Shown here: in pieces, positions 3,808 to 58,580 of the stretch
How the letters are laid out: every line of letters begins with the position of its first letter
Position numbering within the stretch: position 1 is the first letter of the stretch
NCBI GenBank assembly: GCA_016219905.1
Contig: JACRKA010000351.1
Coordinates: forward strand, 2,622 to 66,621
DNA length: 64,000 nt
Source of the DNA: Verrucomicrobiota bacterium
GTDB lineage: Bacteria; Verrucomicrobiota; Verrucomicrobiia; CAIQCK01
Direction of reading: 5' to 3'
The notes under the pieces: model-generated
Databases searched by the model: none
What the model saw: only the letters and a program-made list of their open reading frames with translations
Told to the model about the DNA's origin: nothing
Made by a program: the position numbers and the translations under genes

Positions 3808-5205
3808 TCACAGGTCTTCGAGGTTGAATTCGTGGATCTTGCGGTGCAGCGTGCGCCGGCTCACGCCGAGCCGTTTGGCCGCCTCGGTGCGGTTGCCCTC
3901 GCAAGCCCTGAGCGCGTTGATGAACATCTGCCGCTCCACTTCGTGCAAGGGCAGCACGCCCTTTGCGATCTGCTCCGGCGACAGCATGCCTTGCTCGCGC
4001 GCCGCCTCCGTGCCGGCCCGCACCGCCGGCGGCAGGTCCTTCAGCGTGATCTTGTCGCCGCGCGCCAGCACCACCGCGCGCTCGATGGCCGTGCGCAACT
4101 CGCGCACGTTGCCGGGCCACTGGTAAAACAACAGCGCGTTCATCGCCTCCGGCGTGATCTCCGTGATCGGCTTGTTGTTCTCCCGCGCGAACTCCGTCAG
4201 GCACGCCTTCGCCAGCAGCACCACGTCGTCGCCCCGCTCGCGCAGCGGCGGCATCGTCACCGTCACCACCTGCAAACGGTAGAACAAATCGTCGCGGAAC
4301 TTCCCCGCCTTCACCAGCTCGTCGAGGTTCTTGTTCGTCGCGGCCACCAGCCGCACGTCCACGTCGAGGGTCTTGTTCCCGCCGACGCGCTCGAATTGCC
4401 GTTCGCCGAGCACCCGCAGGATCTTCACCTGCACCGACGGGTCAATCTCGCCGATCTCGTCCAAGAAGATCGTGCCGCCGTCGGCCTCCTCGAACCGCCC
4501 GATCCGCCGCTCCAGCGCGCCGGTGAACGCGCCCTTCTCGTGGCCGAACAGCTCGCTCTCCAGCAGGCTCAGCGACAGCGCCGCGCAGTGGACCGCGACG
4601 AAGCGGCTGGCGCGGCGCGGGCTGAGCTGGTGGACGGCGTGCGCCACCAGTTCCTTGCCGGTGCCGCTCTCGCCCTGGATCAACACCGTCGCCCGCGTCG
4701 GCGCCACCTGACGCACCGTGTCGAGCACCTCCACCATCGGCGCCGACTGGCCGATGATGTTCTCCAGGCCGAACCGTTTGTCGAGTTGCTGCCGCAGCGC
4801 GACGTTTTCACTTTCGAGCCGCCGGCTCTTCAGCGCGCGGGCCAGCACCAACTCCAGCCGTTCCAGGTCCACCGGCTTGGTCAGGTAATCGTAAGCGCCG
4901 CGACGCATCGCCTCCACCGCGTTCTCCACCGTGCCGTAGGCCGTCATCATGATGCACAACGGCGGGCGCGGCAGTGCCTGCGCGCGCTGGATCAACTGCA
5001 ACCCGTCCATGCCCGGCATCCGCAGGTCCGCCAGCACGACATCGAAGCTCTCCGTCTCCAGCAGCCGCATCGCCGTCGCGCCGTCCTCCGCCAGCGTCAC
5101 GGCGTAGTCGCCATCGAGCGCGCGGCTCAATCCCTCGCGCGTGTGGCGTTCGTCGTCCACGACCAGCACGGGCGGCAGCGGGGGTTTGGCAACGGGGGCG
5201 CTCAT
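3808..5205 (-). CDS. Sigma-54-dependent response regulator (NtrC family): receiver domain, AAA+ sigma54-interaction domain and Fis-type HTH.
   Basis: Receiver aspartate region (VLADLRMPGMDG). Walker A GESGTGKE. ESELFGHEKGAFTGA (GAFTGA motif). C-terminal HTH (AAKRLGVSRRTLHRK). Confidence 0.93.
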   Translation of the reverse strand: MSAPVAKPPLPPVLVVDDERHTREGLSRALDGDYAVTLAEDGATAMRLLETESFDVVLADLRMPGMDGLQLIQRAQALPRPPLCIMMTAYGTVENAVEAMRRGAYDYLTKPVDLERLELVLARALKSRRLESENVALRQQLDKRFGLENIIGQSAPMVEVLDTVRQVAPTRATVLIQGESGTGKELVAHAVHQLSPRRASRFVAVHCAALSLSLLESELFGHEKGAFTGALERRIGRFEEADGGTIFLDEIGEIDPSVQVKILRVLGERQFERVGGNKTLDVDVRLVAATNKNLDELVKAGKFRDDLFYRLQVVTVTMPPLRERGDDVVLLAKACLTEFARENNKPITEITPEAMNALLFYQWPGNVRELRTAIERAVVLARGDKITLKDLPPAVRAGTEAAREQGMLSPEQIAKGVLPLHEVERQMFINALRACEGNRTEAAKRLGVSRRTLHRKIHEFNLEDL

Positions 5206-9360: not shown

Positions 9361-10383
9361 ATGAATGAAAAAGTGGCGCACTTGATGGACCGCGCGGTGA
9401 TCCGTTTCGCGACCAACATGATGCGCGACGGTCACAGCGATCACGAGAACCATCCCGAGCAGAAGGAGCTTTGGCAGGCCTACCCGCGCACGCTCGGCTC
9501 GTGGGAGACGCTCTTCGCGCTGCCGGAGCCGCTGACAGATGTGGAGCAATGCCTCAGCCGGCCGCTCTGGCTCGGCCCGGCCACGCACCGGTCGTTTCAT
9601 TTTCCCAGCCCGGTCACGACGCCGTGGGAGATCAACAACCGCGTCGGGGGCGATTACTTCGAGGGTCACGGACCCGACGCGCGCCAGCGGCCCACGGTGC
9701 TGCTGTTGCACGGCTGGAACACAAACATCGCCTACTATCTTAATTACTGCCGCACCGGCCATCGCTTCGCGCGGCGCGGGATCAACTGCGCGTTGATGCA
9801 CCTGCCCTACCACGTGGACCGCAAGCCGAACCGCTGGAAGGAATACTTCCTGACCGAAAACATCGCGCACACTGTGCAGGCCGTGCAGCAGGCGGTCATC
9901 GAGGCGCGCGTCGTGTTGCGCTGGCTGCGCGCGCGGCAGTCCGGCCCCGTCGGCATCTGGGGCATCAGCCTCGGCGGCTGGATCGCGAGCATCGTCGCCT
10001 GTGTGGAGAAGGAGCTGGATTTTGCCGTGCTGATGACGCCCGCGGTCCGGCTCGACCGCCAGGTGTGGGAACTCAAGTTCCTCGCCGCGATGAAGGAGAG
10101 CCTGCTTGCCCAAGGCGCGACGCGCGAGGACATCATCCGCATCGCGGAGCCGCTGCTGCCGAAGTTCCACAAGCCGCTCATCGAACGCGAACGCATCCTG
10201 ATCCTCGAGGCGCTCTACGACCAGTTCCTCGGGCCGGAGACGATTGACGAGCTTTGGCAGGCGTGGGACAAGCCGCCCATCGAACGTTATCGGCACGGCC
10301 ACATCAGCATCCTGATGGATGCCCGCGTCCTGGGCCGCACGGCGGATTTCATCAAGACCATGACGCGCCGCACGGAGCCTTGA
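9361..10383 (+). CDS. Alpha/beta-fold hydrolase of unknown specificity.
   Basis: HGW oxyanion-hole region and nucleophile elbow GISLGG, with a predicted Ser-Asp-His arrangement. First gene of a plus-strand cassette together with the ABC transporter. Confidence 0.7.
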   Translation: MNEKVAHLMDRAVIRFATNMMRDGHSDHENHPEQKELWQAYPRTLGSWETLFALPEPLTDVEQCLSRPLWLGPATHRSFHFPSPVTTPWEINNRVGGDYFEGHGPDARQRPTVLLLHGWNTNIAYYLNYCRTGHRFARRGINCALMHLPYHVDRKPNRWKEYFLTENIAHTVQAVQQAVIEARVVLRWLRARQSGPVGIWGISLGGWIASIVACVEKELDFAVLMTPAVRLDRQVWELKFLAAMKESLLAQGATREDIIRIAEPLLPKFHKPLIERERILILEALYDQFLGPETIDELWQAWDKPPIERYRHGHISILMDARVLGRTADFIKTMTRRTEP

Positions 10384-12359: not shown

Positions 12360-12401
12360 ACACTTGTTGGACGCTCAGCGCACCACCGCTACCGCCAGAG
12401 C

Positions 12402-14132
12402 TTAACCCGCCGCGGCGCTCACAGCCTCGGCGGCCTCGTTCTTCTCATAGAACGTCGGCGGCTCGTAGGTCCAGCCATTGCGGAGGCGACGGTCTTCACG
12501 ACACAGCATGAAGTAGGCGTATCGGCCACCCAACGCGGCCACCAGTCTCGCCTTCAGTCCGAACTCCCCGCAGATGTCCTTCAAAACGCGTGAGGCCCTG
12601 GCCGATACTCGCGGATTGGAACGGAACCACTTCCGGGGTGCCCACAGCGCGGCGGCGTAGGTGACCGCCAGGTCGCGTGCTTCCCACCGGAAGCGCTCGC
12701 GAATCCGATTGTCCGGGTGGTTCTTGTAGCGGCGCCAGCCCTGGAGGATGGTCCGGGCCATCCGCAGCGCGCTCGGCCCGTTGACCTCGAAGTCGCGATT
12801 GAAGGCGCGCAAGAGGTATTCGGTCTCCTGGCCGTCCTTGATGTGCGGGTGCTTGTAGTTGAACTTGAATTGGCCGTGGAGGTCGGCATCGAGATACTCG
12901 GGGTGCTGCAGGAGAGAGCCGTCGGCCCTCAGTTGCTCGTGCAACGGTGTGCCGGGGCTGGCCGAGTAAAGCATGAACTGGTGAAACTCGGTGTCGTGGC
13001 TGACGGCGTAATCAATCGCCTCGTCAATGTTCGCCGGCGTGTGCTCCTCCAACCCGATGATGGTCGAGCCGAGCACGCGGACTCCGTGGGACTGGAGCGT
13101 GCTGATCAGCGCGTGCGTGTTGGATCCCTTCAGCTTGTCATACTTCGAGTTCTTGCCTTCAAGGCCCATCCACACCCACGAGATGCCCAGCCCGACGATC
13201 TGCTCCATCGTGTAGGTGCGGAGCGTGTTGGCCGAACTGAAGATGTAGAGGGACCACGACTTGTTGTGCTCGATCATCAGGTCGAGCAACCGGAGCGCGC
13301 GTTTCTTGTGCAGCAGGAAGTTCTCGTCCATCACGAAGAACGAGCGGACTTTCATCGCGTCTTCCAGCTCGCACATGACCTTGAACAACGCGTCGCCGGT
13401 CTCGTAGAAGTGGACGAAGTTCCCCTTGCCGCCGAACATCGCCGAGGTCGCGCAGAAGTTGCACCCCATCGGGCAGCCCACCGACGGGATCAACGTGGCC
13501 GCCACGTCACCCGGTTTCTCGCTCAGCGGGACGCCCATCGTCCGCCCGCCGATGCCGGAGATGATGCGCGGATGGCGGATCGGCGCGTCCACGTCCTCGC
13601 CGAGGAACCGGCGCATCCAACGCACGCCCTCGCCCTTGACGATGTAGTCCGCGTCAATGCGCTGCTCCAGTTGGCGAATGTTGGACACATGCCCGCCGAT
13701 CACAATCGCCGCCTTCGGCTGGTGCTGCCGGATCAGTTCGCACATCTTCTGCACCTTCGTCACGTTCGGCATGATCGCGCTGATGCCGATCACGTCGTAG
13801 GTCTTCGTGCGAATCTCCTCGATGAAGCGGTCCAGCGTCGGGAAATCCAGCAGCGTGCAGGGCGCGTGGATGTTGGCATGGATCAGCATCAGCCCCCACG
13901 AGCGATGGAACATCCGCACCGAAAACGCCTCCTGCGTCCGTGTCACCTGGCTGTGGTAAAGCTCCATCGGCTTGATGGCGCGGCTGCCGAACTCGTCGTC
14001 CGTGGCGTAAGGGCCAAAGACGCCCGTCAACAGCACGCGAGCTCGCGATCCCAAGGGATGAACCGGCGTATCCAGAACTTCCGTCGGCCCAGAAACAAAG
14101 GTTGTTGCCATAATATGATCCGGCCTTCGCAC
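12402..14132 (-). CDS. B12-binding-domain radical SAM protein (class B rSAM).
   Basis: N-terminal cobalamin-binding Rossmann region. Radical SAM CxxxCxxC = CPMGCNFC. Long C-terminal extension of the kind seen in class B rSAM enzymes. Confidence 0.85.
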   Translation of the reverse strand: MRRPDHIMATTFVSGPTEVLDTPVHPLGSRARVLLTGVFGPYATDDEFGSRAIKPMELYHSQVTRTQEAFSVRMFHRSWGLMLIHANIHAPCTLLDFPTLDRFIEEIRTKTYDVIGISAIMPNVTKVQKMCELIRQHQPKAAIVIGGHVSNIRQLEQRIDADYIVKGEGVRWMRRFLGEDVDAPIRHPRIISGIGGRTMGVPLSEKPGDVAATLIPSVGCPMGCNFCATSAMFGGKGNFVHFYETGDALFKVMCELEDAMKVRSFFVMDENFLLHKKRALRLLDLMIEHNKSWSLYIFSSANTLRTYTMEQIVGLGISWVWMGLEGKNSKYDKLKGSNTHALISTLQSHGVRVLGSTIIGLEEHTPANIDEAIDYAVSHDTEFHQFMLYSASPGTPLHEQLRADGSLLQHPEYLDADLHGQFKFNYKHPHIKDGQETEYLLRAFNRDFEVNGPSALRMARTILQGWRRYKNHPDNRIRERFRWEARDLAVTYAAALWAPRKWFRSNPRVSARASRVLKDICGEFGLKARLVAALGGRYAYFMLCREDRRLRNGWTYEPPTFYEKNEAAEAVSAAAG

Positions 14133-20828: not shown

Positions 20829-21137
20829 TCAGAGTCTCATGCTTGTCAGTTCGTCCACGTTGACCGTCTTGCGCCGTCGGAACAACGCCACGATGATCGC
20901 CAGCCCGACCGCGACCTCGGCCGCGGCGACGGTGATGATGAAGAAAACGAAGACCTGCCCGTGCAGGTTGCCGTTGTAGCGGCTGAACGCCACCAGCGCG
21001 AGGTTGGCCGCGTTCAACATCAGTTCCAGCGACATGAAGATGACCAGCGCGTTGCGCCGGATGATCACGCCCGCCAGGCCGAGCGAGAACAGCACCGCGC
21101 TGACCACGAGATAATGTTGGAGGACGACTGGAATCAT
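20829..21137 (-). CDS. nuoK: NADH-quinone oxidoreductase subunit K.
   Basis: 102 aa, three TM helices ([23 protein letters not shown]...). Start ATG at 21137; the longer ORF-track frame upstream is read-through noise. Confidence 0.9.
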
Positions 21138-21619
21138 TTCAGGTCCCGTTTCGACAGCAACACTACGCCGATCATCGCCACCAGCAGCAGCACCGATGTG
21201 ACCTCGAACGGCAGCAGGTAGTGCGTGAACAGCAGCCGGCCCACCGCCTCGGTCGTGCCTACCACGCCTTTGGCCGCCACCAGCGGCATGTCTTCGACCA
21301 CGTCGTGCACCTTCACGAGGAACGCCGCCGCCACGACAATGCCGCCACCGAAACTCAGGATCCTGAACCGCCGCCGCTGTTCCGACTTCAGGTCGAGGAA
21401 CATGATGACGAACAGGAACAGCACCATCACCGCGCCGGCATAGACCAGCACCTGGATGATCGCCAAGAAATAGGCCTCCAGCACGACGAACAGGCCCGCC
21501 ATGAAAAACATGGCGAGCACCAGGAACATCGCGCTGTTGACCGGGTTGCGGCTCAGGATCACCAGCAACCCGCTCAACAGCATCGCTATGCTGAAAAACC
21601 AAAACAGTTGGTCGTGCAT
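21134..21619 (-). CDS. nuoJ: NADH-quinone oxidoreductase subunit J.
   Basis: Start placed at MHDQLFWFF (ATG 21619). The 14 residues upstream in the ORF track are translated from the intergenic repeat. Confidence 0.88.
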
Positions 21620-21626
21620 TTTACAG

Positions 21627-21783
21627 AAAATCCGAAATCCGAAACTCGAAATTCGAAACAAATCCGAAACCCGAATTCACCAAAGACGGAAACCGCGCGT
21701 AGCGCCCTGGTCGGCCGTTTCCAAGATTTTCGTCTTTCCTCATTCGAGTTTGTTTCGGATTTCGAGTTTCGACATTCGGATTT
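21627..21783. repeat. Structured intercistronic palindromic repeat, copy 1 (nuoI-nuoJ gap).
   Basis: About 50-nt arms built from CCGAAAT/TCGAAAC heptads (aaatccgaaatccgaaactcgaaattcgaaac ... gtttcggatttcgagtttcgacattcggattt) around a roughly 60-nt loop. It fills the whole 163-bp gap. Confidence 0.85.
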
Positions 21784-22283
21784 CACTTCTTCTGCCACTT
21801 CTTGATCGGGTCGGGCATCGTGCCGCCCAACTCCAACAGCTTCTCCTTGTTGAACATCATGTCTTTCCGCGAGAGGCCGGTCACCGAATACGGCCCGCGC
21901 AGGAAGATCGCCTGTTCAGGGCAGACCTCCTCGCAGTAACCGCAGAAAATGCAGCGGATCATGTCAATCTCGAACTCGTCCGGCGTCTTCTCGACCTTCT
22001 TATACTTCGCGTTGTCCGGGTAAGCCATCGGCTTGATCCGGATCGCCCGCGGCGGGCACACAAACTCGCAAAGCTGGCACGCGACGCACTTCACGCGGCC
22101 GTCCTCATCCTTCACCAGCACCGGCTGGCCGCGGTAGCCCGGCGGAATCTCCGGCTTCTGCTCCGGATAGCGCAGCGTCACCTTCTTCCGGAACAGATGC
22201 GAGAACGTCAGCATCATGCCGGAGATGATCGCCGGCAGATAGAGCCGTTCCCAGATCGTCAGCGGTTTGCGCTCGATCCTCAT
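21783..22283 (-). CDS. nuoI: NADH-quinone oxidoreductase subunit I (2x[4Fe-4S] ferredoxin).
   Basis: Two CxxCxxCxxxCP motifs (CVACQLCEFVCP; CIFCGYCEEVCP). ATG at 22283 overlaps the nuoH stop (ATGA). Confidence 0.92.
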   Translation of the reverse strand: MRIERKPLTIWERLYLPAIISGMMLTFSHLFRKKVTLRYPEQKPEIPPGYRGQPVLVKDEDGRVKCVACQLCEFVCPPRAIRIKPMAYPDNAKYKKVEKTPDEFEIDMIRCIFCGYCEEVCPEQAIFLRGPYSVTGLSRKDMMFNKEKLLELGGTMPDPIKKWQKK

Positions 22284-23344
22284 GACGGACTCCATCCGGC
22301 CACAATCGCCAGCCCCGCAATCAAAATGCTCACGAGCGCCAACGGCAAAAAAACTTTCCAGCCCAGGCCCATGAGCTGGTCGTAGCGCACGCGCGGCACC
22401 GTCCAGCGCACCCAGATGAACACCAGCGCCAGCGCGCAGACCTTCGCGAGGAAAATGCAGATGTGGGCGATGCCCACCGCGATGCCGCCGCTGACCGGCA
22501 CGAACGGCAAATGCCAGCCGCCGAGGAACAGCACCGCCAACAGGGCCGAAGCGGTGATCATGTTCGCGTATTCGGCGAGGAAGAACATGGCGAACTTCAT
22601 CGAGCTGTATTCGGTGTTGTAGCCGCCCGCCAGTTCCTGCTCGGCCTCCGGCAGGTCGAACGGCGCGCGGTTGGTCTCCGCGAACGACGACGCCACGTAG
22701 ATGATCGCCGGCAGCCAGTTCCACGGATAGCAAATCAGCCAAAGGTGCTCGGTCTGCCAGCGCACAACCTCCGTCAGCCGCAAGCTGCCCACCTGCATGA
22801 ACAGCGGGATCACCGACAGGCCGAGGCAGAGTTCGTAGCTGATGAGCTGCGCGCTGCTGCGCACGCCGCCGAGGAACGGATACTTCGAGTTGCTCGCCCA
22901 GCCGCCGAGCACGATGCCATAGACACCCAGCGACGCGATGGCGAACACGAACAGGATGCCGACGTTGATGTCCGCGACGATCATCGGCACGCCGCAGAGC
23001 GTGCTGCCGAACGGGATCGCCGCCCAGACCATCAGCGCGGGTGCCATCACGAGCATCGGGCCGAGCCAGAAGTAGAACTTGTTCACGTGGCCCGGCACGA
23101 AGTCCTCTTTGAGGATCGCCTTCAGCGCGTCAATGATCGGCTGGCCAAGCGCCCAGCACGCCCCGATCTGGATTGCGCGGCCATCCTTGCGGATCCAGAT
23201 GGGAATGCCGACGCGGTTCGGGCCAAGCCGGTCCTGGATGAACGCACAGATGCGTCGTTCCGCCAGCACGATGTAGGCGCAGATGAACAGCAGCACGCCG
23301 ACCACGCCGACGATCTTGATCAGATGTATGAGAATCGGGTCCAT
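22280..23344 (-). CDS. nuoH: NADH-quinone oxidoreductase subunit H.
   Basis: 8-TM NuoH/ND1 family; conserved DRLGPNRVG...LGQPIIDALK region. Confidence 0.93.
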   Translation of the reverse strand: MDPILIHLIKIVGVVGVLLFICAYIVLAERRICAFIQDRLGPNRVGIPIWIRKDGRAIQIGACWALGQPIIDALKAILKEDFVPGHVNKFYFWLGPMLVMAPALMVWAAIPFGSTLCGVPMIVADINVGILFVFAIASLGVYGIVLGGWASNSKYPFLGGVRSSAQLISYELCLGLSVIPLFMQVGSLRLTEVVRWQTEHLWLICYPWNWLPAIIYVASSFAETNRAPFDLPEAEQELAGGYNTEYSSMKFAMFFLAEYANMITASALLAVLFLGGWHLPFVPVSGGIAVGIAHICIFLAKVCALALVFIWVRWTVPRVRYDQLMGLGWKVFLPLALVSILIAGLAIVAGWSPS

Positions 23345-23353
23345 GGGTTAAAA

Positions 23354-23507
23354 GCCCGAAATCCGAAACTCGAAATCCGAAATAAATCCGAAATCCGAAG
23401 GCGGCAACGGCCAGACCGGCACCAACCGCTCTGGCGTGGACGTTTCGAGATTCGTTGTCTTCGTCATTCGAGTTTGTTTCGACTTTCGAGTTTCGACTTT
23501 CGGATTT
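23354..23507. repeat. Structured intercistronic palindromic repeat, copy 2 (nuoG-nuoH gap).
   Basis: Same architecture and heptad composition as copy 1 (cccgaaatccgaaactcgaaatccgaaataaatccgaaatccgaa ... cattcgagtttgtttcgactttcgagtttcgactttcggattt). It fills the 161-bp gap. Confidence 0.85.
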
Positions 23508-25149
23508 ACCCCAACTGCACGCCGCCGTCGCCGATCTTCTCCAGCGACAGGCCGGCAAACGGCTTCACGTTGGCCGCCATGTCCGCGAACAACGCCACGA
23601 TGTCCGCAAACCGGTCTGGTTGACCGGTCTCGCGCAACAGGTCGCGAAAGATTTCCCAATCGCTGCGCTCTTCGCCGCCGAGCGACACGGCCGGCCAGAC
23701 ACGCTGGACGCGCCCCTTGGCATTGGTGAACGTGCCGCGTTTCTCGGCGTAAGTCACGCCCGGCAGCACGAAATGCGCGGCCTTCGTCGTCTCCGTCGGC
23801 CTGAAATCCACGACCAGCAGCAGCGACAGCTTCGCCAACAGATCGGCGCCGATGCCGCGCCGGGTCACATCCTCCTGATGGACGACGAGCGTCTTGATCT
23901 TGCCAGCCTTGATGCCGTCGGCGATCGCCGCGAACTTCGACCCCATCGGCGCGGCTGCCACGTTGAAAATCTTCGCGCCGGCGCTGTTCGGGTTGCGGTC
24001 GGCGTTGACGAGGAAGCTGTCACCGTCCCACGTCCGCGGCACGCAATCGCTGACGCTGCCTTTCGCCAGCATCGAGAACAGGTAAAGCTCCTCGTTGGTC
24101 GCCCGCGCGCTGCCGACGAACGCCACGCTCGTGCGGTCGGCCAGCGCGGCCTTCAGCTTCGGCGCGAGTTGCTTCAGCGCATCGGCGTAGCTCGTCTCCT
24201 TGCCGCTGACGAACGCCTTCTTCAGCCGGCTCGCTGCGTTGATGTGTTTGTAGTTGTGACGGCCTGCGTCGCACATCCAGCATTCGTTGACGGCGTCGTT
24301 TTCGCGCGGCGTCTGGCGATAGACGACGTTCTCGCGCGACCAGATGACGATGTTGCAGCCCGTGGCGCAGCTCGTGCAGATGCTCTTGGTCTCCTTCAGG
24401 AACCAGACGCGCATCTTGAACCGGAAATCCTTGTCGGTGAGCGCGCCGACCGGGCAGAGGTCCACGGTGTTGAGGGAGTAATTGCCGGCGAGCTTCTTGC
24501 CAGGCCAGCAGGTCAACGTCGTGTGGCTGCCCCGGTTGGTGAAGCCGAGACAGTCGTCCTTTGCCACATCGCGCATGAACCGGATGCAGCGGCTGCACAG
24601 GATGCACCGCTCGTCGTCGAGCATCACGCGCAGGCCGAGGTCCACCTGTTTCGGCTTGTGAACCTTCTCCTCGCGGAACCGGGACGCGTCCTTGCCGAAC
24701 TCGACGGAATATTCCTGCAGCTTGCACTCGCCAGCCTGGTCGCAGATCGGGCAGTCGAGCGGATGGTTGATGAGGAAGAACTCCATCACCGAGTTCTGCG
24801 CCTGTTGCACAGCGGGCGAGTTGGTGACGACGACCATGCCCTCGGTGACCTGCGTGTTGCAGCCGATGGACAGGCGAGGCGCCATCGTGACCTTCGTCGT
24901 GCCGTCGGGGTTGAGGACAGGCTTGCCGTCGGGGCCGCGCATCGGGCCGCCCACCTCGACGAGGCACATGCGGCAGTTGCCGGAGATGGCGAGCTTCTTG
25001 TGATAGCAATAGTGCGGCACGAACACCCCGACCCTCTGGCCCGCTTCGATGAGGTTGGTGCCCTTCGGCACCTGCACCTTGATGCCGTTGATGGTCGCGT
25101 TGACCATCTCGGCGGCTGGCGTTGGAGTTGTCGGGTTGTCCGCCATCAT
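23506..25149 (-). CDS. nuoG: NADH-quinone oxidoreductase subunit G (75 kDa Fe-S subunit, short form).
   Basis: N-terminal 2Fe-2S and His-ligated 4Fe-4S motifs (CYHKKLAISGNCRMC; HPLDCPICDQAGEC). 547 aa. Confidence 0.92.
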   Translation of the reverse strand: MMADNPTTPTPAAEMVNATINGIKVQVPKGTNLIEAGQRVGVFVPHYCYHKKLAISGNCRMCLVEVGGPMRGPDGKPVLNPDGTTKVTMAPRLSIGCNTQVTEGMVVVTNSPAVQQAQNSVMEFFLINHPLDCPICDQAGECKLQEYSVEFGKDASRFREEKVHKPKQVDLGLRVMLDDERCILCSRCIRFMRDVAKDDCLGFTNRGSHTTLTCWPGKKLAGNYSLNTVDLCPVGALTDKDFRFKMRVWFLKETKSICTSCATGCNIVIWSRENVVYRQTPRENDAVNECWMCDAGRHNYKHINAASRLKKAFVSGKETSYADALKQLAPKLKAALADRTSVAFVGSARATNEELYLFSMLAKGSVSDCVPRTWDGDSFLVNADRNPNSAGAKIFNVAAAPMGSKFAAIADGIKAGKIKTLVVHQEDVTRRGIGADLLAKLSLLLVVDFRPTETTKAAHFVLPGVTYAEKRGTFTNAKGRVQRVWPAVSLGGEERSDWEIFRDLLRETGQPDRFADIVALFADMAANVKPFAGLSLEKIGDGGVQLG

Positions 25150-26473: not shown

Positions 26474-27652
26474 TCAGTGCTTGTGCTCGTGATCAGGTTC
26501 ATGCTGCGGCACGCCGTCCGCAGGGATTGAAGCAAGCGGCAACGATGATGAATGCTCGATCAGCGAAATCACGAACCGGTCCGCCTCGGTCGGGGACGGG
26601 TTTTCCGCCGGGTCGGGCACTGACAGGAGTTTGCCCTCGACTTCGCGCCAGGCCCAGTTGATGAACTCGCCGGCGGCGCAAGTGATCCGGATGATGTAAC
26701 GGGCGCCGGCGATCTCGGCCACGACGTTCCAGACGTTGGCGAGCGTGCCGTAAGCTTCGAGAGCTGCCTTGTGCCCGTCCTCCAACAGGAGACAAACGAG
26801 ATTGCTCGCGTCGCCAAGTGCGTATGTGTCGTCGGCCTTGCCGGCGAGTTCCGCGGGCAACACCGCATCGCGCCCCATCTCTTTAAGGCAACGCTGCCGC
26901 GCGTAAGCCGCCGGCATCTTCAGCCGCTCGATCGCCATGCAAGCCTCGAACACCAGCACCGCCTCCTCAAAATCATCTACACGCCACATCGAGACGCCGA
27001 GGTTGTAGGCCTCGATGGGCGGCAGTTCCAACTCTCTGGGCAGTTGCCCCACGGCGACCCTCGCTTCAGCGGACGGCTTCTGCTGAACCGCAGGCGCTGG
27101 CGCAGCGCGTTTGCGGGCCGGGTGCTGGCGCGTGTCGGGCTTCTGGAGCGTCGCCTTTTGCACGGGAGTCTTCGGCGGAGGCGCAACTATTGCCAGAATC
27201 TCGTCGAGCTTCGCTGGCGTGACGTTTTCGTAGTGGTCGTCGTTGATGGTGACGCACGGCCCTTTGTCGCACGCCGCGAGGCACTCGACCCAGGCGAGGC
27301 TGAACCGCCTGTCCCTGGTGACCTCGTCCATGCCGATGCCGAGTTTCTGTTTCAACGCTTGGGCGAGCTTGTGGCTGCCAGCCAGTTCGCACGACAACGT
27401 GCGGCAGATCTTGATGTGATACTTGCCGACGCGTTTGCGCCGGAACATCGGGTAGAACGTCACGCACTCGGCGACGTGGATCGGCTGGCACTCCAGCTTC
27501 TTCGCCGTCCACTCGATCATCGGGTCGGAGATAAATCCGTAATGCTCCTGCATGGCGTGCAGCGCCATCAACATCGCGCTGCGCTTCTTGTCGGGCGGAT
27601 AGTGCGCCAGCAGCGCGTCCACGGCGGCGTTGAGTTCTGGAGGCGGTTGCAT
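26474..27652 (-). CDS. nuoE: NADH-quinone oxidoreductase subunit E (24 kDa 2Fe-2S) carrying a C-terminal extension of about 230 aa of unknown function.
   Basis: Start ATG at 27652, immediately after the nuoD stop. Thioredoxin-like NuoE core with Cys ligands (CRTLSC...CLAACDKGPC). It is followed by a roughly 230-aa non-NuoE region ending in a His-rich tail (HEPDHEHKH). Confidence 0.85.
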   Translation of the reverse strand: MQPPPELNAAVDALLAHYPPDKKRSAMLMALHAMQEHYGFISDPMIEWTAKKLECQPIHVAECVTFYPMFRRKRVGKYHIKICRTLSCELAGSHKLAQALKQKLGIGMDEVTRDRRFSLAWVECLAACDKGPCVTINDDHYENVTPAKLDEILAIVAPPPKTPVQKATLQKPDTRQHPARKRAAPAPAVQQKPSAEARVAVGQLPRELELPPIEAYNLGVSMWRVDDFEEAVLVFEACMAIERLKMPAAYARQRCLKEMGRDAVLPAELAGKADDTYALGDASNLVCLLLEDGHKAALEAYGTLANVWNVVAEIAGARYIIRITCAAGEFINWAWREVEGKLLSVPDPAENPSPTEADRFVISLIEHSSSLPLASIPADGVPQHEPDHEHKH

Positions 27653-27654
27653 GG

Positions 27655-28962
27655 TCAGCGGTCGCACTCCCCCATCACAAAGTCGAATGAACCAAGGATC
27701 GCCACCACATCGGCGATGAGATGGCCTTTGAGCAGGTGCGGCAACACGCTCAGGTTGCAAAAGCTCGGCCCGCGGATCTTCAACCGCCACGGCACGCCTC
27801 CGCCGCGGCTGACCACGTAGAAGCCCAGCTCGCCCTTCGCGTTCTCGGCGCTGAAGAACGCCTCGCCCGGCGGCACGTTCGGCCCCTCGGTGACCACCAT
27901 GAACTGGTGGATGAGTTCCTCCATCCGCGTCAGCACCTTTTCCTTCGGCGGCAGGATGGTCTTGAAATCCGGCGCGTTGACCGGCCCGCCGGGCAACTTG
28001 TCGCACGCCTGCTTGAGGATGCGCACCGATTGGCGCATCTCCTCCATGCGGACCAAGTAGCGGTCGTAGCAGTCGCCCATCGTGCCGACGGGCACGTCGA
28101 ACTCGAAGTCTTGGTAGCAGAGATACGGATGCGCTTTGCGGAGATCGTATTCGACGCCGCTGGCGCGCAGGTTCGGCCCCGTGACGCCATAGTCAATCGC
28201 CACCTCCGGCGCGAGCACGCCGACGTCGCGGTTGCGGTCCATAAAAATGCGGTTGCCCGTCAACAACCGGTCCACCTCGCCAAGCGTCTTCGGGAACGTG
28301 TCGAGGAAGTGGCGCAGCTCGGCGATCCAGCCTTCCGGAATGTCGCGCGCCACGCCGCCGATGCGCGTGTAGCTGTTGGTGAGGCGGGCGCCGGTCATTT
28401 TCTCCAGCAGCGTGTAGAGCCGTTCACGCTCGGTGAACGTCCAGAGGAATATCGTCAGCGCGCCCAGATCGAGTCCCATCGCGCCGATGCCCATCAGGTG
28501 GGACGCGATACGTGCGATCTCGCAGCAGATGGCGCGGATATACTGGCAGCGCGGCGGCACTACCAAACCCATGAGCTTCTCGACCGCGAGGACAAAGGCA
28601 ACGTTGTTGGCCGGCGATGCGAGGTAGTCGAGCCGGTCGGTGTAGGGCACGAACTGGTTGTAGGTGAAATTCTCGGCGATCTTCTCCTCGCCACGATGCA
28701 GGTAGCCGATCTCCGGCCGCGCGGCGGTGACGATCTCGCCGTCCAGCTCGAGCACCAACCGCAACACGCCGTGCGTGGACGGGTGCGACGGCCCCATGTT
28801 CAGGACCATCTTCTCGCACGGCAGTTCCGGCTCCGGCACGGGTGGCTGGGCCGCCGCAACCTGCGGGGCCGCGACACGCGCTGCCACGGCGCGCGCCACC
28901 GCCGCCCGCGTTGCGGGCGTCTTGACCTTCACTTGAGCGACTTTGGGTTGCGGTGTTGACAC
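27655..28962 (-). CDS. nuoD: NADH-quinone oxidoreductase subunit D (49 kDa), with an Ala/Val-rich N-terminal extension.
   Basis: Conserved MVLNMGPSHPSTHGVLRL core from about residue 52. The low-complexity N-terminus (AAVARAVAARVAAPQVAAAQPP) may or may not be translated. Confidence 0.9.
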   Translation of the reverse strand: MSTPQPKVAQVKVKTPATRAAVARAVAARVAAPQVAAAQPPVPEPELPCEKMVLNMGPSHPSTHGVLRLVLELDGEIVTAARPEIGYLHRGEEKIAENFTYNQFVPYTDRLDYLASPANNVAFVLAVEKLMGLVVPPRCQYIRAICCEIARIASHLMGIGAMGLDLGALTIFLWTFTERERLYTLLEKMTGARLTNSYTRIGGVARDIPEGWIAELRHFLDTFPKTLGEVDRLLTGNRIFMDRNRDVGVLAPEVAIDYGVTGPNLRASGVEYDLRKAHPYLCYQDFEFDVPVGTMGDCYDRYLVRMEEMRQSVRILKQACDKLPGGPVNAPDFKTILPPKEKVLTRMEELIHQFMVVTEGPNVPPGEAFFSAENAKGELGFYVVSRGGGVPWRLKIRGPSFCNLSVLPHLLKGHLIADVVAILGSFDFVMGECDR

Positions 28963-33954: not shown

Positions 33955-36900
33955 TCACTCCTCGGAAATCGTCGGCCGCTGCGCCGTCTGCGCCGGCGCA
34001 GACGGTGCGCTTTGACTCAGCAGCGCCTTCAACCGCTCGTTCAGCAAATAAATCTGGTGCGGCGCCTTTGCGCGGTTGTCCACGACGTAAAGCTGCTGCC
34101 GCGGCAGCAACTCTTCCATCATCTCCAGGTAAAACCGTTCCGCCTGCGCCTCACGCTGTGGGCCGGCCGCCTTGGCCGTCGCTGCGAACCGCGCCGCGCG
34201 GCCATTGCTATCCGCGATTTTCGCGTCCCGTGCCGCCGTCGCCGCCGTCACCGTGTTCGTTGCCGCTCCGCGCGCCAGAGGCACCTGCTCATTGCGGTAG
34301 CCCTCCGCTTCGTTGATGACGCGGCTCTTTTCCTCAATGGCGCTCGCCACGTCGCGATACGCGTCCACCAGCTCGATCGGCGGATGCACGTCCTGCAACC
34401 GCACGGCCTGCACCTCGATCCCTGCCGCGCACGCATCGAGCCGCCGTTGGATGAACTCTCGCACATGCTGCTCGACGAAGGGCCGGCCCGTCGTGAGCAA
34501 TCGCTCCGCTGCCGCGCGTCCCGCCGCCTCGCGCAGCGCCGCCTCGGCCAGCGCCTTCACCAGCGCCGCCGGCTCCGTCGCCGCGAACAGGTAAGCCACC
34601 GGGTCCTTCACCACGAAATGCGTCGTCAGTGTCACCGCCACGAAGTTCTCGTCGCCCGCCACCACCATCGCCTCCTCCGGCACGAACTGGAACCCACCCT
34701 TGTGCTCATAGTTCCATTCGTAGGCCGTCGGTTCAATAAACACATTCGTCTGCGCGGCGGCCGGCTGCGTCCATCGTTTCCAGAACGGCTGCGCCGCGAC
34801 AGCGCGCTCCACCGCGCGCAACCCGACCTGCACACGCTGCACGCGCTCCGGCGTCACGCGGAGCACTTCGTCGCACGGCCACGGCCAGACGTAACTCAGC
34901 CCCGGTTCCAGCACGGCAACCTTTCGGCCAAAATGCAACCGCACGCCGACCTCGTCCGGCTGGATCGCCGTCAAGCCGGTCACAAACCAACTCGCCGTTG
35001 CCGCCACGAGCGCCACGCCCAGCGCTTTCGCCGGTTGGTTGCGACAGAACCCCGCCACCGCATTGCCCTGCCGCCGACATCCCGCCGTCTGCTGCTGCCA
35101 CCACGCCGCGCCGCGCCGCGCCGTCTCGCCGCTCGACAAGAGTCGCAGCGAGTTGCACACCACCAGCAGCGAGGAAATCTGGTGCGTGACCGCCGCGCCG
35201 ATCGGCCCGATCACGCCTTGCGACGCCGCGAACACCGCCGCGCCATTGAAGCCGACGGCGAACCACCAGATGTTGTGCCGGATCGTGCGGATGACCTGCC
35301 GGCAAAACTCGATCGCGAAAGGGATTCTCCTCAAGTCGTCCTGCATCAGCACGACATCAGCCGCCTCGATGGTGATGTCCGTGCCCAACCCGTGCATCGC
35401 CACGCCCGTGTCCGCCGCCGCGAGCGCCGGCGCGTCGTTGATCCCGTCGCCGCACATCAACGTCGCCAGCCCGCGCTGCTGGAGCGCGCGGATGCGCGCG
35501 ACCTTGTCCGCCGGCAGCAAGCCCGCGCCCACCTCGCCGATGCCCACGCGCTCGCCAATGGCGCGCCCGACGCGTTCGTTGTCACCCGTCAGCAGGACAA
35601 TCTGCTCGATGCCACACCCACGCAGCAACGCCACCGTCTCGCGCGCTTCCTCGCGTGGGGGGTCGCTAAGGGCGACCGCGCCGATGACGGTAGCCGCCGA
35701 CGTATGGAGGCGGTCCGCTTTCTTACCAACAGAACTGTTGTCCACCTCCTCACGTCGGTGGCTACCGCGCGCCACCAGCACCACCGTGTGGCCCGCTTCC
35801 TCCAGCCGCTGGATGCGCGCCTCGGCTTCCGCGGAAATCGCCGCGCCCCGCTGCTGCATCAGCTGGCGGTTGCCCACCGCAATGAATGTGGGAGGGGCCT
35901 TAGCGCCCCGACCCGGCGCGTCCCACGCCCCAGGAACGGACTTGGAAGTCCGTTCTACTTCGGAGGCTGTGCTCGAAGTCGTAGAACGGACTTCCAAGTC
36001 CGTTCCATCGTCACGACGAACCTCCGCCACCGTGCCCATGCCCGGCACGGCTTCGAACTTATCCGCCCGCTTCAGCGCAATGCCCCGCCGCTGCGCCTCC
36101 GCCACGATCACCTGCGCCAGCGGATGCTCCGAGTGCGACTCCGCCGTCGCCGCGAGCGCGAGCAACGCGCCCTCATCGCCGCCAAACGCGACCGTCTCGA
36201 CGACGCGCGGTTTGCCGACGGTCAGCGTGCCGGTCTTGTCGAACACAACCGCGCGCGTGTTCGCGAGCTTCTCCAGATAGATGCCGCCCTTGACCAACAC
36301 GCCGGCCCGCGCGAGCCGGCCGATGCCCGCCGCGATGCCCGTCGGCGTCGCCAACACCAGCGCGCACGGACACGCCACGATCAGCACGCTGACGGCCCGG
36401 ATGAGCCGCGCGCTGAAGTCCCCGCCGGAAAAGAAAAACGTCGCAAGGCCCAGCGCGATGACCGTCGGCACGAACCATACCGCCCACTTGTCGGCGCGCT
36501 GATGGACACCCGCCTTTTTCTCCTCCGCCTCCTCGACGAGGTGAATGATCTTGCCGAGCGTGGAATCCTCACCGACGCCAGTGACGCGCACGTCGAGCGA
36601 GCCGACCTGGTTGATGGTGCCTGCGAACACCTTGTCTCCGCCGGCCTTGTTCACCGGGATGCTCTCGCCAGTGATCGCGCTCTGGTCCACCGCCGATGCG
36701 CCCGCGACGACCTCGCCGTCCACCGCAATGCGCTCGCCCGGCCGAACCATAACCACGTCGCCAGCACGGATGTTGTCCAGCGCCACCTCGACGATGTCGC
36801 CGCCGCGCCGGACGCTGGCGGTGCGCGGCACCAGCTTGATGAGCTTCTCGATCGCGCCGCGCGTGCGGTCCACGGCGAGTTCTTCGAGATAGCCGCCGAC

Positions 36901-38265: not shown

Positions 38266-38364
38266 GTTGGAGTGATGGAGTATGGGAGTGTTGGGGGGAT
38301 GGGGAGATAGAACTTTCCGCTTCAACAATCCACTACTCCACAACTCCAATACCCCATCACTCCA
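38266..38364. repeat. GGAGT-rich palindromic intergenic element (family E), copy 1, between the convergent galE and exported-protein genes.
   Basis: ttggagtgatggagtatgggagtgttgggg ... ccacaactccaataccccatcactccatc forms a long imperfect hairpin that abuts both stop codons. Confidence 0.75.
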
Positions 38365-40800
38365 TCATTCGAGCTTCGGCCCCTCGATCCGCTCGCCGCG
38401 CTGCTGGCGGGCCTGGTCGGCGACATCGAACGTGCCGTAGAACAGCGCGTTCGCATCCATCCACGTCACCAGCCGCTCCATATCCTCCGCGGTGAGCGCC
38501 ACGTCGTGGTGACCTTTCATCAGCATCTTCATCAACGGGCTGCCGCGCGCGCCGAAAAAGTCCGGCTGCGACATCGGCTCGCTGTTCACGACGCGGAAGT
38601 CGCCCGGCTTGCCACCCCACGCCGAGAACGACACGCGTCCGGCCAGCGCGTTGTAGGAGGCGCTGTAGCGGCCTTGCGGTTCGCCCGTCAGCGCAAGCTT
38701 GCCCTCCGGCTGCGGCCCGCTGTGGCAGGAGACGCAATGTTTGTTGAGCACGGGCTGGACGAGGATGGGATAACTCAACGGCTTCGAGCCGTCGGGGCCG
38801 GGCGCAATCGTCGAAGGCGGCCGTGACATGGCGATGGCGACGCGGCGTGAAGATGGAGTGTTGGCACGGTGCTCGTGGCAGCCGACACAAGAAACGCGCT
38901 CGCCCGGCTGGAGATAGGTGACGCTGCGCATCGTTTGCACCGCCTGGCCGCGCTCGTCGAGCGCCTGGAACGCGAGCGCGATATTGGCCGGCGCGCGGAA
39001 ATACGCCGAGCCATCCGCCTCGACAGGCACCGTGCCGAGCACTTGCTTGCCGGGCGAGGCATTCGCAACACCAACCGTCGGCGCGTTGATGTGCGGTGTC
39101 GTCTTGGGCAGCACCTGGATGACGCGCAGACGCGTGATGCGAGCATCCGGCAGCCGCGGCCATGAATCGTGAACATTTTCAACAAAGAAGGTGCCGTCGC
39201 GCGATGCGGCATCCTTGATGCGCGATTCGGATTCTTGTGCAAGCAACGGCAACGCCGGCGGCGTCGGACGCGCCCGCAGCGGCATCGGCCAGAGGCTGCA
39301 GATTTCCGAGTCGCGATAAAGCAGTTCCTTGTTGCCGAACGCATCCACGAGGTAGAGGCCGAACATGTTCGCCGGATTGGCGCTCGGCTCGCCGATCAGC
39401 GGGTCGAAACTGTAGGCGGCCAGAAAATACTTCTCCGACAACGGCCACGGCGTGCGATAGCAGTGGCCCGGCCACCGCGCCGCCTCCGGCGGAACAACTG
39501 GCGGGTTCTTCGGGCTGCCCGGCGCGCGCCAGAACGCCGGTTTCGCCGTGCCGTGCGACACGGGCTCCTCGCTCTCGGGAAACAGCGCGTCCGGCGTCAG
39601 CCGCGTGATTGGTTCCAGACCGTCCACCCCGCGCGTCACATCAAGCAGAATGATCGAGCCGGCGGTCATCGCATGGTGCGCCGCAGCGGTGGCCATCACG
39701 CGGCTCGACGCCGGCACGGCGCGGGCTTCCCACACGCCGACCGGGTTCAACGTGTTGTTGCCGTAGAACGCACGCACATCCGTGCCGTCCGGCCGCACCG
39801 TCCAGAGTTGCTGGTAATGCACTGCGTTGCGGTCCACGTAATCCCAACGCGTGTAGATGACACGGCCATCGTTGAGGACCGACGGGTCCCATTCGTGCGT
39901 CTCGTGAAACGAGACCGGATGCGGGTCGGAGCCGTCGCCGTTCGCGACAGCCAGCGTGTAGGTCGCGCACGGCCCGCGCCCGCAGCGATGGAACCCGCCG
40001 CGCCGCGTCGAGATGAAAACAATGCGGCCATCGGGCAAACAGCGTGACGCAAAATCGTCGAACGGCCCGTCTGTGAGCTGGCGCAGCCGCGAACCGTCTG
40101 CCGCCATCTCGTAGAGATGGTAATACCGGTCCAGACACGCCTCGCGATCCTTCGGCGCGGTCGGGGCGTTACAGTAGGCGAACAGGATGCGTTTGCCGTC
40201 GTAGGACACCTCCGGGAACTGGAAACTGCCGGGCGGCAGCGCATCCGGCGCAAGCTGGCGGCACCGCATCGTCCTGCCCGGCTCGTCGAGCGCGAACACC
40301 CCGCCGCCCGGCCGCGCGCAACTGCCGTAGTATTGCGTGAGCTGGTGGCTGAACATGCTCGGCACCTGCTTCACGAAAACCAGCGGCCCCGTTTTCGCGA
40401 GCGGATTGGCAAACACGATCTCGCGCCGCAACTCATGCGCCCGCCGCCAGAGGCTTTCCAAAGCAGGAGAATCCGCCATCGTAGGCGCCGACGTAAGGAG
40501 GCGAACGTCATGTGTTGAGCCGGAACGTTTCGCCTCCTCACGTCGGCGCCTACCGAACTCCCCGCGCAGCTTCTCCCATTGCCGCTGCAAATCTCCCAAC
40601 TCCACGCCCGCCGCCCCCAGATCGCTAATCAGCGCATCACCACGCTTGAAGAGCTTGGCGACCGCGTCCACGTAGGTGCCGGGATTACGCGCCGTGCCGA
40701 TGCCATCCTGTTTGCGCCAGTCGGCTTCAATCATCGCGCGCTCGTCCGCCCCAAGCACGCTCGTGACTGCCATGAAGAATGACAATGCAAATCGCCGCAT
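38365..40800 (-). CDS. Exported protein with a TolB-like beta-propeller region and two C-terminal CxxCH (putative c-type haem) motifs. It carries an in-frame palindromic insertion.
   Basis: Signal peptide MRRFALSFFMAVTSVLGA. Repeated DG.(R/I).F.S propeller-like units. CVGCHEH and CVSCHSG motifs near the C-terminus. Confidence 0.65.
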   Translation of the reverse strand: MRRFALSFFMAVTSVLGADERAMIEADWRKQDGIGTARNPGTYVDAVAKLFKRGDALISDLGAAGVELGDLQRQWEKLRGEFGRRRREEAKRSGSTHDVRLLTSAPTMADSPALESLWRRAHELRREIVFANPLAKTGPLVFVKQVPSMFSHQLTQYYGSCARPGGGVFALDEPGRTMRCRQLAPDALPPGSFQFPEVSYDGKRILFAYCNAPTAPKDREACLDRYYHLYEMAADGSRLRQLTDGPFDDFASRCLPDGRIVFISTRRGGFHRCGRGPCATYTLAVANGDGSDPHPVSFHETHEWDPSVLNDGRVIYTRWDYVDRNAVHYQQLWTVRPDGTDVRAFYGNNTLNPVGVWEARAVPASSRVMATAAAHHAMTAGSIILLDVTRGVDGLEPITRLTPDALFPESEEPVSHGTAKPAFWRAPGSPKNPPVVPPEAARWPGHCYRTPWPLSEKYFLAAYSFDPLIGEPSANPANMFGLYLVDAFGNKELLYRDSEICSLWPMPLRARPTPPALPLLAQESESRIKDAASRDGTFFVENVHDSWPRLPDARITRLRVIQVLPKTTPHINAPTVGVANASPGKQVLGTVPVEADGSAYFRAPANIALAFQALDERGQAVQTMRSVTYLQPGERVSCVGCHEHRANTPSSRRVAIAMSRPPSTIAPGPDGSKPLSYPILVQPVLNKHCVSCHSGPQPEGKLALTGEPQGRYSASYNALAGRVSFSAWGGKPGDFRVVNSEPMSQPDFFGARGSPLMKMLMKGHHDVALTAEDMERLVTWMDANALFYGTFDVADQARQQRGERIEGPKLE
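40481..40553. repeat. In-frame palindromic element (family A), copy 2, inside the exported-protein gene.
   Basis: Arms gtaggcgccgacgtaaggaggcgaacg / cgtttcgcctcctcacgtcggcgcctac share the core CCGACGT..GGAGGCG / CGCCTCCTCACGTCGG with the copy in the ATPase. Encodes about RRRREEAKRSGSTHDVRLLTSAPT. Confidence 0.75.
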
Positions 40801-54849: not shown

Positions 54850-54851
54850 GA

Positions 54852-54907
54852 GGCGTGAAACGTGAAACGTGAACGTGAAACTCTTACGTTTTACGTTTTA
54901 CGTTTCA
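54852..54907. repeat. GTGAAAC heptad-repeat hairpin (family C) exactly filling the gap between plsY and the upstream gene.
   Basis: gcgtgaaacgtgaaacgtgaacgtgaaac tcttac gttttacgttttacgtttcac: about 25-bp inverted arms of GTGAAAC/GTTTTAC units. Confidence 0.8.
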
Positions 54908-58498: not shown

Positions 58499-58580
58499 TT
58501 GGAGTGGTGGGGTGATGGAGTATTGGAGTGTTGGGTTGTCTGTGGAAGTTACCCATTACTCCAATACTCCAACACTCCAT
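58499..58580. repeat. GGAGT-rich palindromic intergenic element (family E), copy 2, between the glucan phosphorylase stop and the ADH start.
   Basis: ttggagtggtggggtgatggagtattggagtgttggg ... cccattactccaatactccaacactccat: the same GGAGT(A/G)TTGG-unit hairpin as at 38266-38364. Its right arm overlaps the TAA stop. Confidence 0.75.

Follow-up and report, generated by a model that had tools for sequence, protein, structure and literature searches.

The minus strand of a 64,000-nt stretch of Verrucomicrobiota DNA (contig JACRKA010000351.1; the whole stretch is hereafter referred to as the window) carries a nuo (complex I) operon with two unusual junctions, nuoI-nuoJ and nuoG-nuoH, where gaps of 163 nt (21620-21782) and 161 nt (23345-23505), respectively, separate the genes. 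Which kind of element occupies these gaps, and how does it relate to the operon that harbors it? The original prediction, made from the letters alone, held that both gaps are filled by the same hairpin with arms of seven-nucleotide units, and considered a determinant of mRNA processing or stability, a device setting complex I subunit stoichiometry or a dispersed repeat resembling MITEs (miniature transposable elements bounded by inverted repeats). Our analysis confirmed the filling of both gaps, as inverted repeats, a 7-nt period and fold z-scores of about -5.2 were found in each, and we interpret the two hairpins, named E1 and E2, as probable gene-less miniature members of a widespread heptad-arm hairpin family whose full-length form carries a PF05635 gene. 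As judged by profile matching, their arms are shown to be homologous to those flanking PF05635 genes, and both the full-length and the miniature forms lie between co-directional cistrons, extending from the upstream stop codon, or a point just past it, to shortly before the next start codon.

Two heptad-armed hairpins between nuo genes

On the mRNA strand, E1 consists of an A-rich 5' arm (21784 to 21716) and a U-rich 3' arm (21698 to 21627), and E2 of a 5' arm (23508 to 23438) and a 3' arm (23416 to 23355). Their inverted repeats are 85% complementary in E1 (21628-21668/21743-21783) and 78% in E2 (23356-23400/23459-23503). Tandem Repeats Finder assigned a period of 7 nt to the arms, and the heptad register is visible in all four, with units CGAAAYY / RRTTTCG built on a CGAAAY core. 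The first bases of the A-rich arm (AAAUCCGAAnnnCGAAACUCGAAAnnCGAAACAAACUCGAAUGA...) are shared with the upstream stop codon (nuoI TGA, 21783-21785; nuoG TAA, 23506-23508), and 4-11 nt separate the end of the U-rich arm from the following ATG (nuoJ, 21617-21619; nuoH, 23342-23344). The predicted mRNA-strand folds are highly stable (-69.9 kcal/mol and z -5.18 for E1; -71.9 kcal/mol and z -5.27 for E2; 0 of 200 shuffles as stable in either case), with stems of more than 40 bp containing small internal loops, and the flanking start codons lie outside these stems. Both elements have the same orientation relative to the operon, are mutual nearest relatives and are 71% identical. The search for further copies of the 22-mer that had been recommended returned four in the window at up to 3 mismatches, against 0.00 expected from shuffles, and all of them correspond to the four arms.

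No Rfam family was found for E1 or E2, the E-value mode giving chance matches to plant and animal miRNA hairpin models only. Likewise, a scan for promoter and terminator consensus flagged no site at either element, and neither hairpin qualified as an intrinsic terminator. Retrons, diversity-generating retroelements (DGRs), integron attC sites and CRISPR arrays were also considered and rejected, with no reverse transcriptase, integrase or repeat-spacer structure being present nearby. Each hairpin contains a small open reading frame (ORF; Table 1), which might permit translational coupling; we give this little weight, because the T-rich arm is open in all frames and the ORFs are possibly incidental. 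Their reading as remnants of a PF05635 N-terminus was discarded, only 'MT.T' being in common, which is not significant.

A cross-phylum hairpin family and its PF05635 genes

A genome scan with the pattern common to all four arms (CCGAANNNCGAAACTCGAAANNCGAAA) identified at least 116 loci from many phyla, against about 0.07 expected by chance (22 fixed bases over approximately 1.2e12 positions), in agreement with the predicted dispersed, apparently insertional, MITE-like repeat. About half of the matches listed, here termed Class A, have positions in common that the pattern does not force, located before, within and after it (AAAT...CAAAT..CGAATGA..GAAACG), and their arm continues into a non-periodic inner arm (..CAAAT.CGAATGAC..GAAACG..). 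Class A hosts include Gemmataceae, Phycisphaerae, Sedimentisphaerales, Pirellulales, Verrucomicrobiota, Lentisphaerae, Desulfobacterota, Hydrogenedentota and a few others, and Class B, present in Bacteroidota, Acidobacteriota and Chloroflexota among others, comprises plain (YCGAAAC)n arrays. The Class A arm was modelled with nhmmer as a profile hidden Markov model (HMM), which paired the matches into 52 hairpins (median length 152 nt; a stricter regular-expression detector gave 25 pairs), and scored the arms of E1 at 54.7 and 53.9 bits and those of E2 at 48.9 and 45.7 bits. Among 50 of these hairpins, 42 could be classified as lying between two called genes, which were co-directional in 34 cases, convergent in 6 and divergent in 2; the upstream stop codon was mostly 0-30 nt from the hairpin.

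Several loci hold two or three hairpin copies within 8 kb, and one Desulfobacterales metagenome-assembled genome (MAG) contains near-identical copies in different flanks (L016, L089 and L077), therefore indicating recent proliferation. Viral contigs yielded only 7 matches, thus phages are no obvious carrier; BLAST of E1 against plasmids gave no match, low-complexity masking being the probable cause. Two solo A-arms stand directly in front of genes (L055, 72-145; L086, 1758-1830), and in the former a glyS-like gene apparently takes its start codon from the AATGACC of the arm (MTKISKDILFEIGTEELP). In a Bacteroidota intergenic region near nuo genes (L027, ~1440-1700), (GTGAACA)n, (CTCGAAA)n and (CCCTCGT)n arrays occur in series.

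The link with PF05635 emerges at a Planctomycetota locus (L088), which bears a tandem array of half-elements whose loops hold the first 15 codons of the neighbouring gene, and one 217-nt element that encloses an internally deleted copy of that gene with both gene ends kept. The gene belongs to PF05635, '23S rRNA-intervening sequence protein' (E 3e-13), and to TIGR02436, 'four helix bundle protein'; the solved homologue of its protein is 2GSC from Xanthomonas. Its close homologues number more than 8000 and are located mostly on short contigs, as expected for repeated sequence. The arm HMM that detects E1 and E2 at 46-55 bits also matches the flanks of the L088 gene, within the E range of 1e-6 to 4e-12 given below for other loci; the full-length form of the element encloses a PF05635/TIGR02436 four-helix-bundle gene of ~121 aa. 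At 4326-4900 of the same locus a 132-nt unit, made up of an A-arm plus the first 15 PF05635 codons, is repeated in tandem four to five times, which suggests unequal recombination between elements.

In a reciprocal test, PF05635 homologues were picked only for their long contigs, regardless of repeats, and all five genes (L129, L133, L137, L146 and L149) were found flanked by Class A arms. Arm HMM matches had E-values from 1e-6 to 4e-12 in L129, L137, L146 and L149; in L133 a single arm was matched, at E 8e-4. At four of these loci (L129, L133, L137 and L149) the PF05635 gene lies between co-directional operon genes (VWA|MoxR, PALP|DapB, RND adaptor|ABC ATPase), in the order upstream stop codon, few nt, A-arm, ORF beginning ATGAC.GAAAC..., stop codon, T-arm, few nt and next ATG. 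The innermost arm motif of the miniatures matches this same start-codon region (CAAATGAC.GAAAC). Furthermore, the heptad-selected loci yielded four more PF05635 genes, each standing between inverted heptad arrays with a unit of its own: GTTTCGR/YCGAAAC in L048 (Bacteroidales) and L026 (Acidobacteriota), GTTTTCA/TGAAAAC in L021 (Acidobacteriota), and GTTGCGR/YCGCAAC in L072 (Bacteroidales). Genes annotated as 'four helix bundle protein' on plasmids of two cultured organisms also have such arms, GGTTYAA/TTRAACC in Riemerella anatipestifer and GGGAAAA/TTTTCCC in Nostoc sp. ATCC 53789. Taken together, inverted tandem-heptad arrays flank 12 of 12 independent PF05635 loci examined, with lineage-specific units beyond Class A, and in 10 of the 12 the arms directly bracket the ORF. 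The full-length relatives encode no transposase but only the four-helix-bundle protein, and no reverse transcriptase or template/variable repeat pair was found beside the PF05635 cassettes at the loci examined. With these cassettes, E1 and E2 share the enclosing stem, the heptamer arms, the homology of those arms and the co-directional intercistronic site; they lack the ORF.

The closest known parallel is the ORF-bearing intervening sequence (IVS) of 23S rRNA in Leptospira and Coxiella burnetii. In the latter, inverted repeats form a 28-bp stem cleaved by RNase III, the loop contains an S23p (PF05635) ORF, tandem GACAGAT heptamers of strain-variable number stand just upstream of the ATG, and the authors regard the IVS as a selfish element of unknown origin (PMC4990558). 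The PF05635 cassettes match this architecture in the stem, the loop ORF and the heptamers by the ATG, and the rRNA elements likewise occupy a transcribed unit that continues to function. The rRNA IVSs are placed in helix 25 or 45 of 23S rRNA, whereas the present elements stand between protein-coding cistrons; in addition, the Coxiella IVS has GACAGAT as its heptamer, an ORF and an observed RNase III cleavage, while E1 and E2 have no such ORF and a cleavage that is only predicted. According to a review (PMC10053308), the PF05635 family, to which the protein of the full-length elements belongs, counts as the homologue of Avd, the accessory protein of DGRs; the DGR partners of Avd (reverse transcriptase, template and variable repeats) are absent from the examined cassettes.

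Intergenic heptamer repeats constitute a second parallel. Passages of PMC4692102 describe heptamers as the over-represented class of long simple sequence repeats (SSRs) in bacteria, often present as inverted pairs in intergenic regions, for instance the intergenic GGGAATC repeats of Xanthomonas, of which 70-75 convergent pairs could form stem-loops, and the GGGGAYT repeats of Nostoc, e.g., between pecE and pecF; passages of PMC4679880 describe TAACTGA heptamers in Beggiatoaceae, Cyanobacteria and Bacteroidetes, with an unexplained cross-phylum distribution. Judged by these passages, the described repeats (Xanthomonas, Nostoc, TAACTGA and the cyanobacterial short tandemly repeated repetitive (STRR) sequences) resemble the present arms as tandem 7-nt units near ORFs, mostly between co-directional genes, and differ in heptamer sequence; in Class A, by contrast with them, the unit length is fixed and long segments without periodicity are conserved. 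Four-helix-bundle genes are not mentioned in the searched passages of either paper. In the open-access literature we found no paper tying heptad hairpins to PF05635 genes, other than the heptamers within the Coxiella IVS, and a literal search of the heptad strings there retrieved only unrelated primers.

Arrival in the operon and competing explanations

Related nuo operons with a NuoH 77-79% identical to that of the window were compared at the same junctions. The nuoG-nuoH gap measures 0 nt, as a TAG-ATG abutment, in L117, L121, L142, L143, L144 and L145, and in L121, L142 and L144 only 2-29 nt separate nuoI from nuoJ. The arm HMM had no match in the five relatives scanned with it (L117, L118, L121, L142 and L144). 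The comparison that had been proposed as a check turned out in favor of a dispersed element, in that six related operons lack the arms at these junctions. Other inserts do occur there: L117 and L118 have small ORFs at the nuoI-nuoJ junction, and in L118 the nuoG-nuoH junction (9877-10000) is filled by an unrelated GTAG-tagged palindrome, of the same family as one at 35933-36006 of the window, and the nuoJ-nuoK junction (12401-12627) by a GC-rich palindrome (CCTGGGAGCGCGGGCATCCTGCCCGC...). The nuo junctions of this clade have therefore been repeatedly colonised by different inserts. A near-identical palindrome of the CCTGGGAGCGCGGGCATCCTGCCCGC type lies in the loop of a Gemmataceae Class A hairpin (L003, 145-332), being a second palindrome with a cross-phylum distribution. 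Judging by this comparison, E1 and E2 are apparently lineage-specific arrivals, inserted after divergence from the sampled relatives at junctions that are tight in the latter; as regards complex I, the hairpins are recent passengers rather than conserved parts of the operon.

The mechanism that we propose is as follows. The miniatures would have arisen through loss of the loop gene, as supported by the L088 intermediate and by the retained start-codon motif. E1 and E2 would be co-transcribed with nuo, folding co-transcriptionally into imperfect stems of 45-50 bp, and would be tolerated in the same manner as the rRNA IVSs, since neither the start nor the stop codons alongside are sequestered by the stem. 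By analogy with those IVSs, RNase III may cleave the stems and split the nuo transcript into B-G, H-I and J-N segments, which we consider plausible because the full-length relatives have the architecture of 23S rRNA IVSs. Propagation would need factors supplied in trans, the obvious candidate being the encoded pentameric protein, which would bind the heptad arrays.

In 21 of 30 copies the sense strand gives the better RNA fold (p 0.017; G-U pairs 160 versus 112 on the antisense strand), a modest asymmetry that hints at a constraint on the transcribed strand. An alignment of 24 copies shows no variation in the CGAA/TTCG cores, while pairing at the variable heptad positions does not exceed that of controls (88.6% of cells paired versus 89.6% in shuffles). 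Since the cores are invariant and compensatory changes are lacking, it is sequence, not merely pairing, that is preserved, and this would suit a generic structural RNA less well than recognition by a protein or a recent common origin.

Several observations weigh against our interpretation. The family HMM found no PF05635-like ORF anywhere in the 64-kb window, which makes E1 and E2 gene-less derivatives instead of complete members of the cassette type. A metagenome scan with the arm subtype specific to the window retrieved only 4 copies, miniature or solo, and no PF05635 gene, so that for this Verrucomicrobial lineage the link to PF05635 is drawn solely from arm homology. Moreover, E1 and E2 differ at 29% of their positions and are therefore not recent copies of each other; neither a target-site duplication nor an exact empty site could be defined, as the nearest relatives are ~21% diverged. 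The asymmetry in fold energy could stem from base-composition skew, and the 24-copy alignment revealed no compensatory changes in the stem (1 of 34 pairs with a double change), hence selection for RNA pairing as such is not demonstrated. Lastly, in L146 and in the full-length L088 copy, complete hairpins stand on either side of the PF05635 gene.

This last arrangement would be accounted for if the heptad hairpins were primary, as a structured repeat or landing pad into or next to which PF05635 genes insert secondarily, E1 and E2 then being 'empty' rather than derived by deletion; that miniatures and solo arms far outnumber genes (5 genes in at least 116 heptad-selected loci) points in the same direction. 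We nevertheless regard such an order of events as unlikely, given that one L088 hairpin retains both ends of an internally deleted gene, that the innermost arm motif of the miniatures matches the PF05635 start-codon region, and that direct bracketing of the ORF by the arms predominates.

An adaptive regulator specific to nuo, that is, a processing or stability determinant or a translational insulator selected for complex I subunit ratios, would be in keeping with long stable hairpins that occupy two junctions exactly, the start codons remaining outside the stem, with a division of the operon into B-G, H-I and J-N, and with small ORFs ending 1-3 nt before the ATG. It is made highly improbable by the absence of the elements from the same junctions in six related operons, by the presence of the same element between unrelated genes in many phyla, and by the unrelated palindromes at the L118 nuo junctions; in view of the TAG-ATG abutment in the relatives, the proposal of a built-in stoichiometry device is not supported.

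Repetitive extragenic palindromic (REP) sequences and their doublets (REPINs), as well as MITEs such as Chunjie, ERIC and Correia, are short palindromic, multi-copy intergenic repeats, often situated within operons and after stop codons, which are co-transcribed and can serve as mRNA stabilisers or RNase III substrates. REPs are GC-rich, 20-40 nt long, GTAG/CGTC-tagged and lineage-specific, and MITEs have ends of the insertion sequence (IS) type and target-site duplications. Terminal inverted repeats, intergenic location, dispersal in multiple copies and presence/absence polymorphism would all suit a conventional non-autonomous transposon, either an IS-derived MITE or a REP/REPIN moved by a REP-associated tyrosine transposase (RAYT), but to this we attach a very small probability. 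Inspection of the termini of E1, E2 and 30 other copies revealed no direct repeat, with no closely related empty site to compare; the arms start with AAATCCG, are AT-rich heptad arrays of 65-85 nt, unlike IS ends, carry no GTAG/CGTC tag and are conserved across phyla; the gene associated with the family encodes a four-helix-bundle protein, not a transposase; and the true GTAG-tagged REP-like palindrome of the window (35933-36006) has a different sequence. Finally, slippage in place of SSRs, similar to the cyanobacterial STRR or the Xanthomonas GGGAATC repeats, with incidental palindromy and no relation to PF05635, would agree with the heptamer excess and inverted pairing described in passages of PMC4692102, with the plain (CGAAACY)n arrays of Class B in many phyla and with the variable heptad number among copies, but it is scarcely credible in the face of non-periodic segments and an overall length of ~150 nt conserved across phyla, and of such arms at every PF05635 locus examined.

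Neighbouring features and implications

The genes adjoining E1 and E2 are listed in Table 1. Pfam assigned nuoF, nuoG, nuoH, nuoI and nuoK, and the assignment of nuoJ is based on its position and on the N-terminus MHDQLFWFF, common to the PF00499 genes of the relatives. In a homology search, the NuoH protein was 100% identical to a deposited NuoH ('MAG: Verrucomicrobia bacterium'). The window contains no rRNA, Rfam at the gathering threshold giving only a tRNA.

Table 1. Coordinates of E1, E2, their internal ORFs and the adjoining nuo genes (positions in the window).
Feature	Position	Strand	Description and evidence
E1	21627-21784	minus	Gene-less heptad-arm hairpin filling the nuoI-nuoJ gap; inverted repeat, RNA fold, arm HMM
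E2	23351-23508	minus	Second gene-less copy, filling the nuoG-nuoH gap; inverted repeat, RNA fold, arm HMM
ORF inside E1	21621-21743	minus	40 codons; start at CGAATGA, through the U-rich arm, TAA 1 nt before nuoJ ATG
ORF inside E2	23348-23467	minus	39 codons; same start motif and frame through the arm, TAA 3 nt before nuoH ATG
nuoJ	21134-21619	minus	Downstream of E1; translation, N-terminus and position as in relatives
nuoI	21783-22283	minus	Upstream of E1; Pfam Fer4 families; TGA stop overlaps the first bases of E1 (TGAAATCCG)
nuoH	22280-23344	minus	Downstream of E2; PF00146, E 2e-114
nuoG	23506-25149	minus	Upstream of E2; Pfam NuoG domains; TAA stop overlaps the start of E2 (TAAATCCG)

The claim that all other nuo junctions are tight was upheld in part. 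The H/I, J/K, F/G and L/M junctions are ATGA overlaps, and K/L and M/N have a spacing of 1-3 nt; the exception is nuoE, whose ORF (~26474-27180, minus strand) runs ~235 codons beyond the 2Fe-2S thioredoxin-like domain, up to nuoF. In the relatives NuoE has 158-162 aa and ends 3 nt before nuoF, and the extension could represent an in-frame insertion or a fusion at the E/F junction. What appears as a nuoC-nuoD 'gap' in the clade can be read as coding for a low-complexity extension, rich in Pro, Ala and Lys, at the N-terminus of NuoD, of 330-520 nt in relatives (L117, 4896-5230; L118, 4730-5235; L121, 4881-5401) and ~50 codons in the window (~28810-28962).

Three more hairpins of the same style were observed in the window, and together with the PF05635 link and the cross-phylum distribution they lie beyond what the original prediction covered. 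A 57-nt CGTGAAA/TTTACGT heptad hairpin (54852-54908), in the style of E1 and E2 with a different heptad, exactly fills the gap between co-directional minus-strand genes (flanking stop at 54908, next ATG at 54848-54850), and folds at -31.5 kcal/mol as plus-strand RNA versus -21.3 kcal/mol as minus-strand RNA. In the hairpins at 58499-58589 and 38266-38368 the arms consist of ~8-nt units (TGGAGTGA / TCACTCCA type); one hairpin stands between co-directional and the other between convergent genes, and both may belong to the same superfamily as additional gene-less members. A tandem run of five CGTGAAA heptads that lacks an inverted partner (42700-42737) is found within a long minus-strand ORF, shortly upstream of a UvrD/Rep-like 'GTFHAIANRLLR' motif; it gives the impression of a heptad array taken up by coding sequence, and similar in-ORF arms exist in L024 and L094. 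The window also contains the REP/REPIN-like doublet at 35933-36006, a perfect 26-nt inverted repeat (GGAACGGACTTGGAAGTCCGTTCTAC / GTAGAACGGACTTCCAAGTCCGTTCC), and a 31-nt inverted repeat at 41455-41525, 87% complementary with a 9-nt loop (GGTGGGGCGAGGCTCTGCCGAGCC...).

For complex I itself the finding is a modest one, and its main interest lies outside the coordinates originally considered, in that heptad-armed hairpins and PF05635 genes appear to be one widespread kind of intervening element. Going by their sequence organization, the PF05635 cassettes would place in mRNAs an IVS architecture known from rRNA. More tentatively, as something that we hold possible rather than probable, tandem-heptad hairpins with or without PF05635 would form a single, unrecognised cross-phylum class of selfish intervening elements residing at harmless transcript sites (intercistronic junctions and 23S rRNA helices), in which a pentameric Avd-like protein would recognise its own lineage-specific heptad array, and the excess of intergenic heptamers (STRR, GGGAATC, TAACTGA and others) would largely be their footprint. 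The origin of the 23S rRNA IVSs has been a loose end for decades, the 'four helix bundle / S23p' proteins are very abundant, and intergenic heptamer arrays had been described without explanation in passages of PMC4692102 and PMC4679880; our results suggest that the three loose ends, namely IVS origin, the function of these proteins and the heptamer excess, belong to one kind of element. For genome annotation, such elements explain odd gaps and spurious small ORFs in the tight operons of Planctomycetota, Verrucomicrobiota, Acidobacteriota, Bacteroidota and others.

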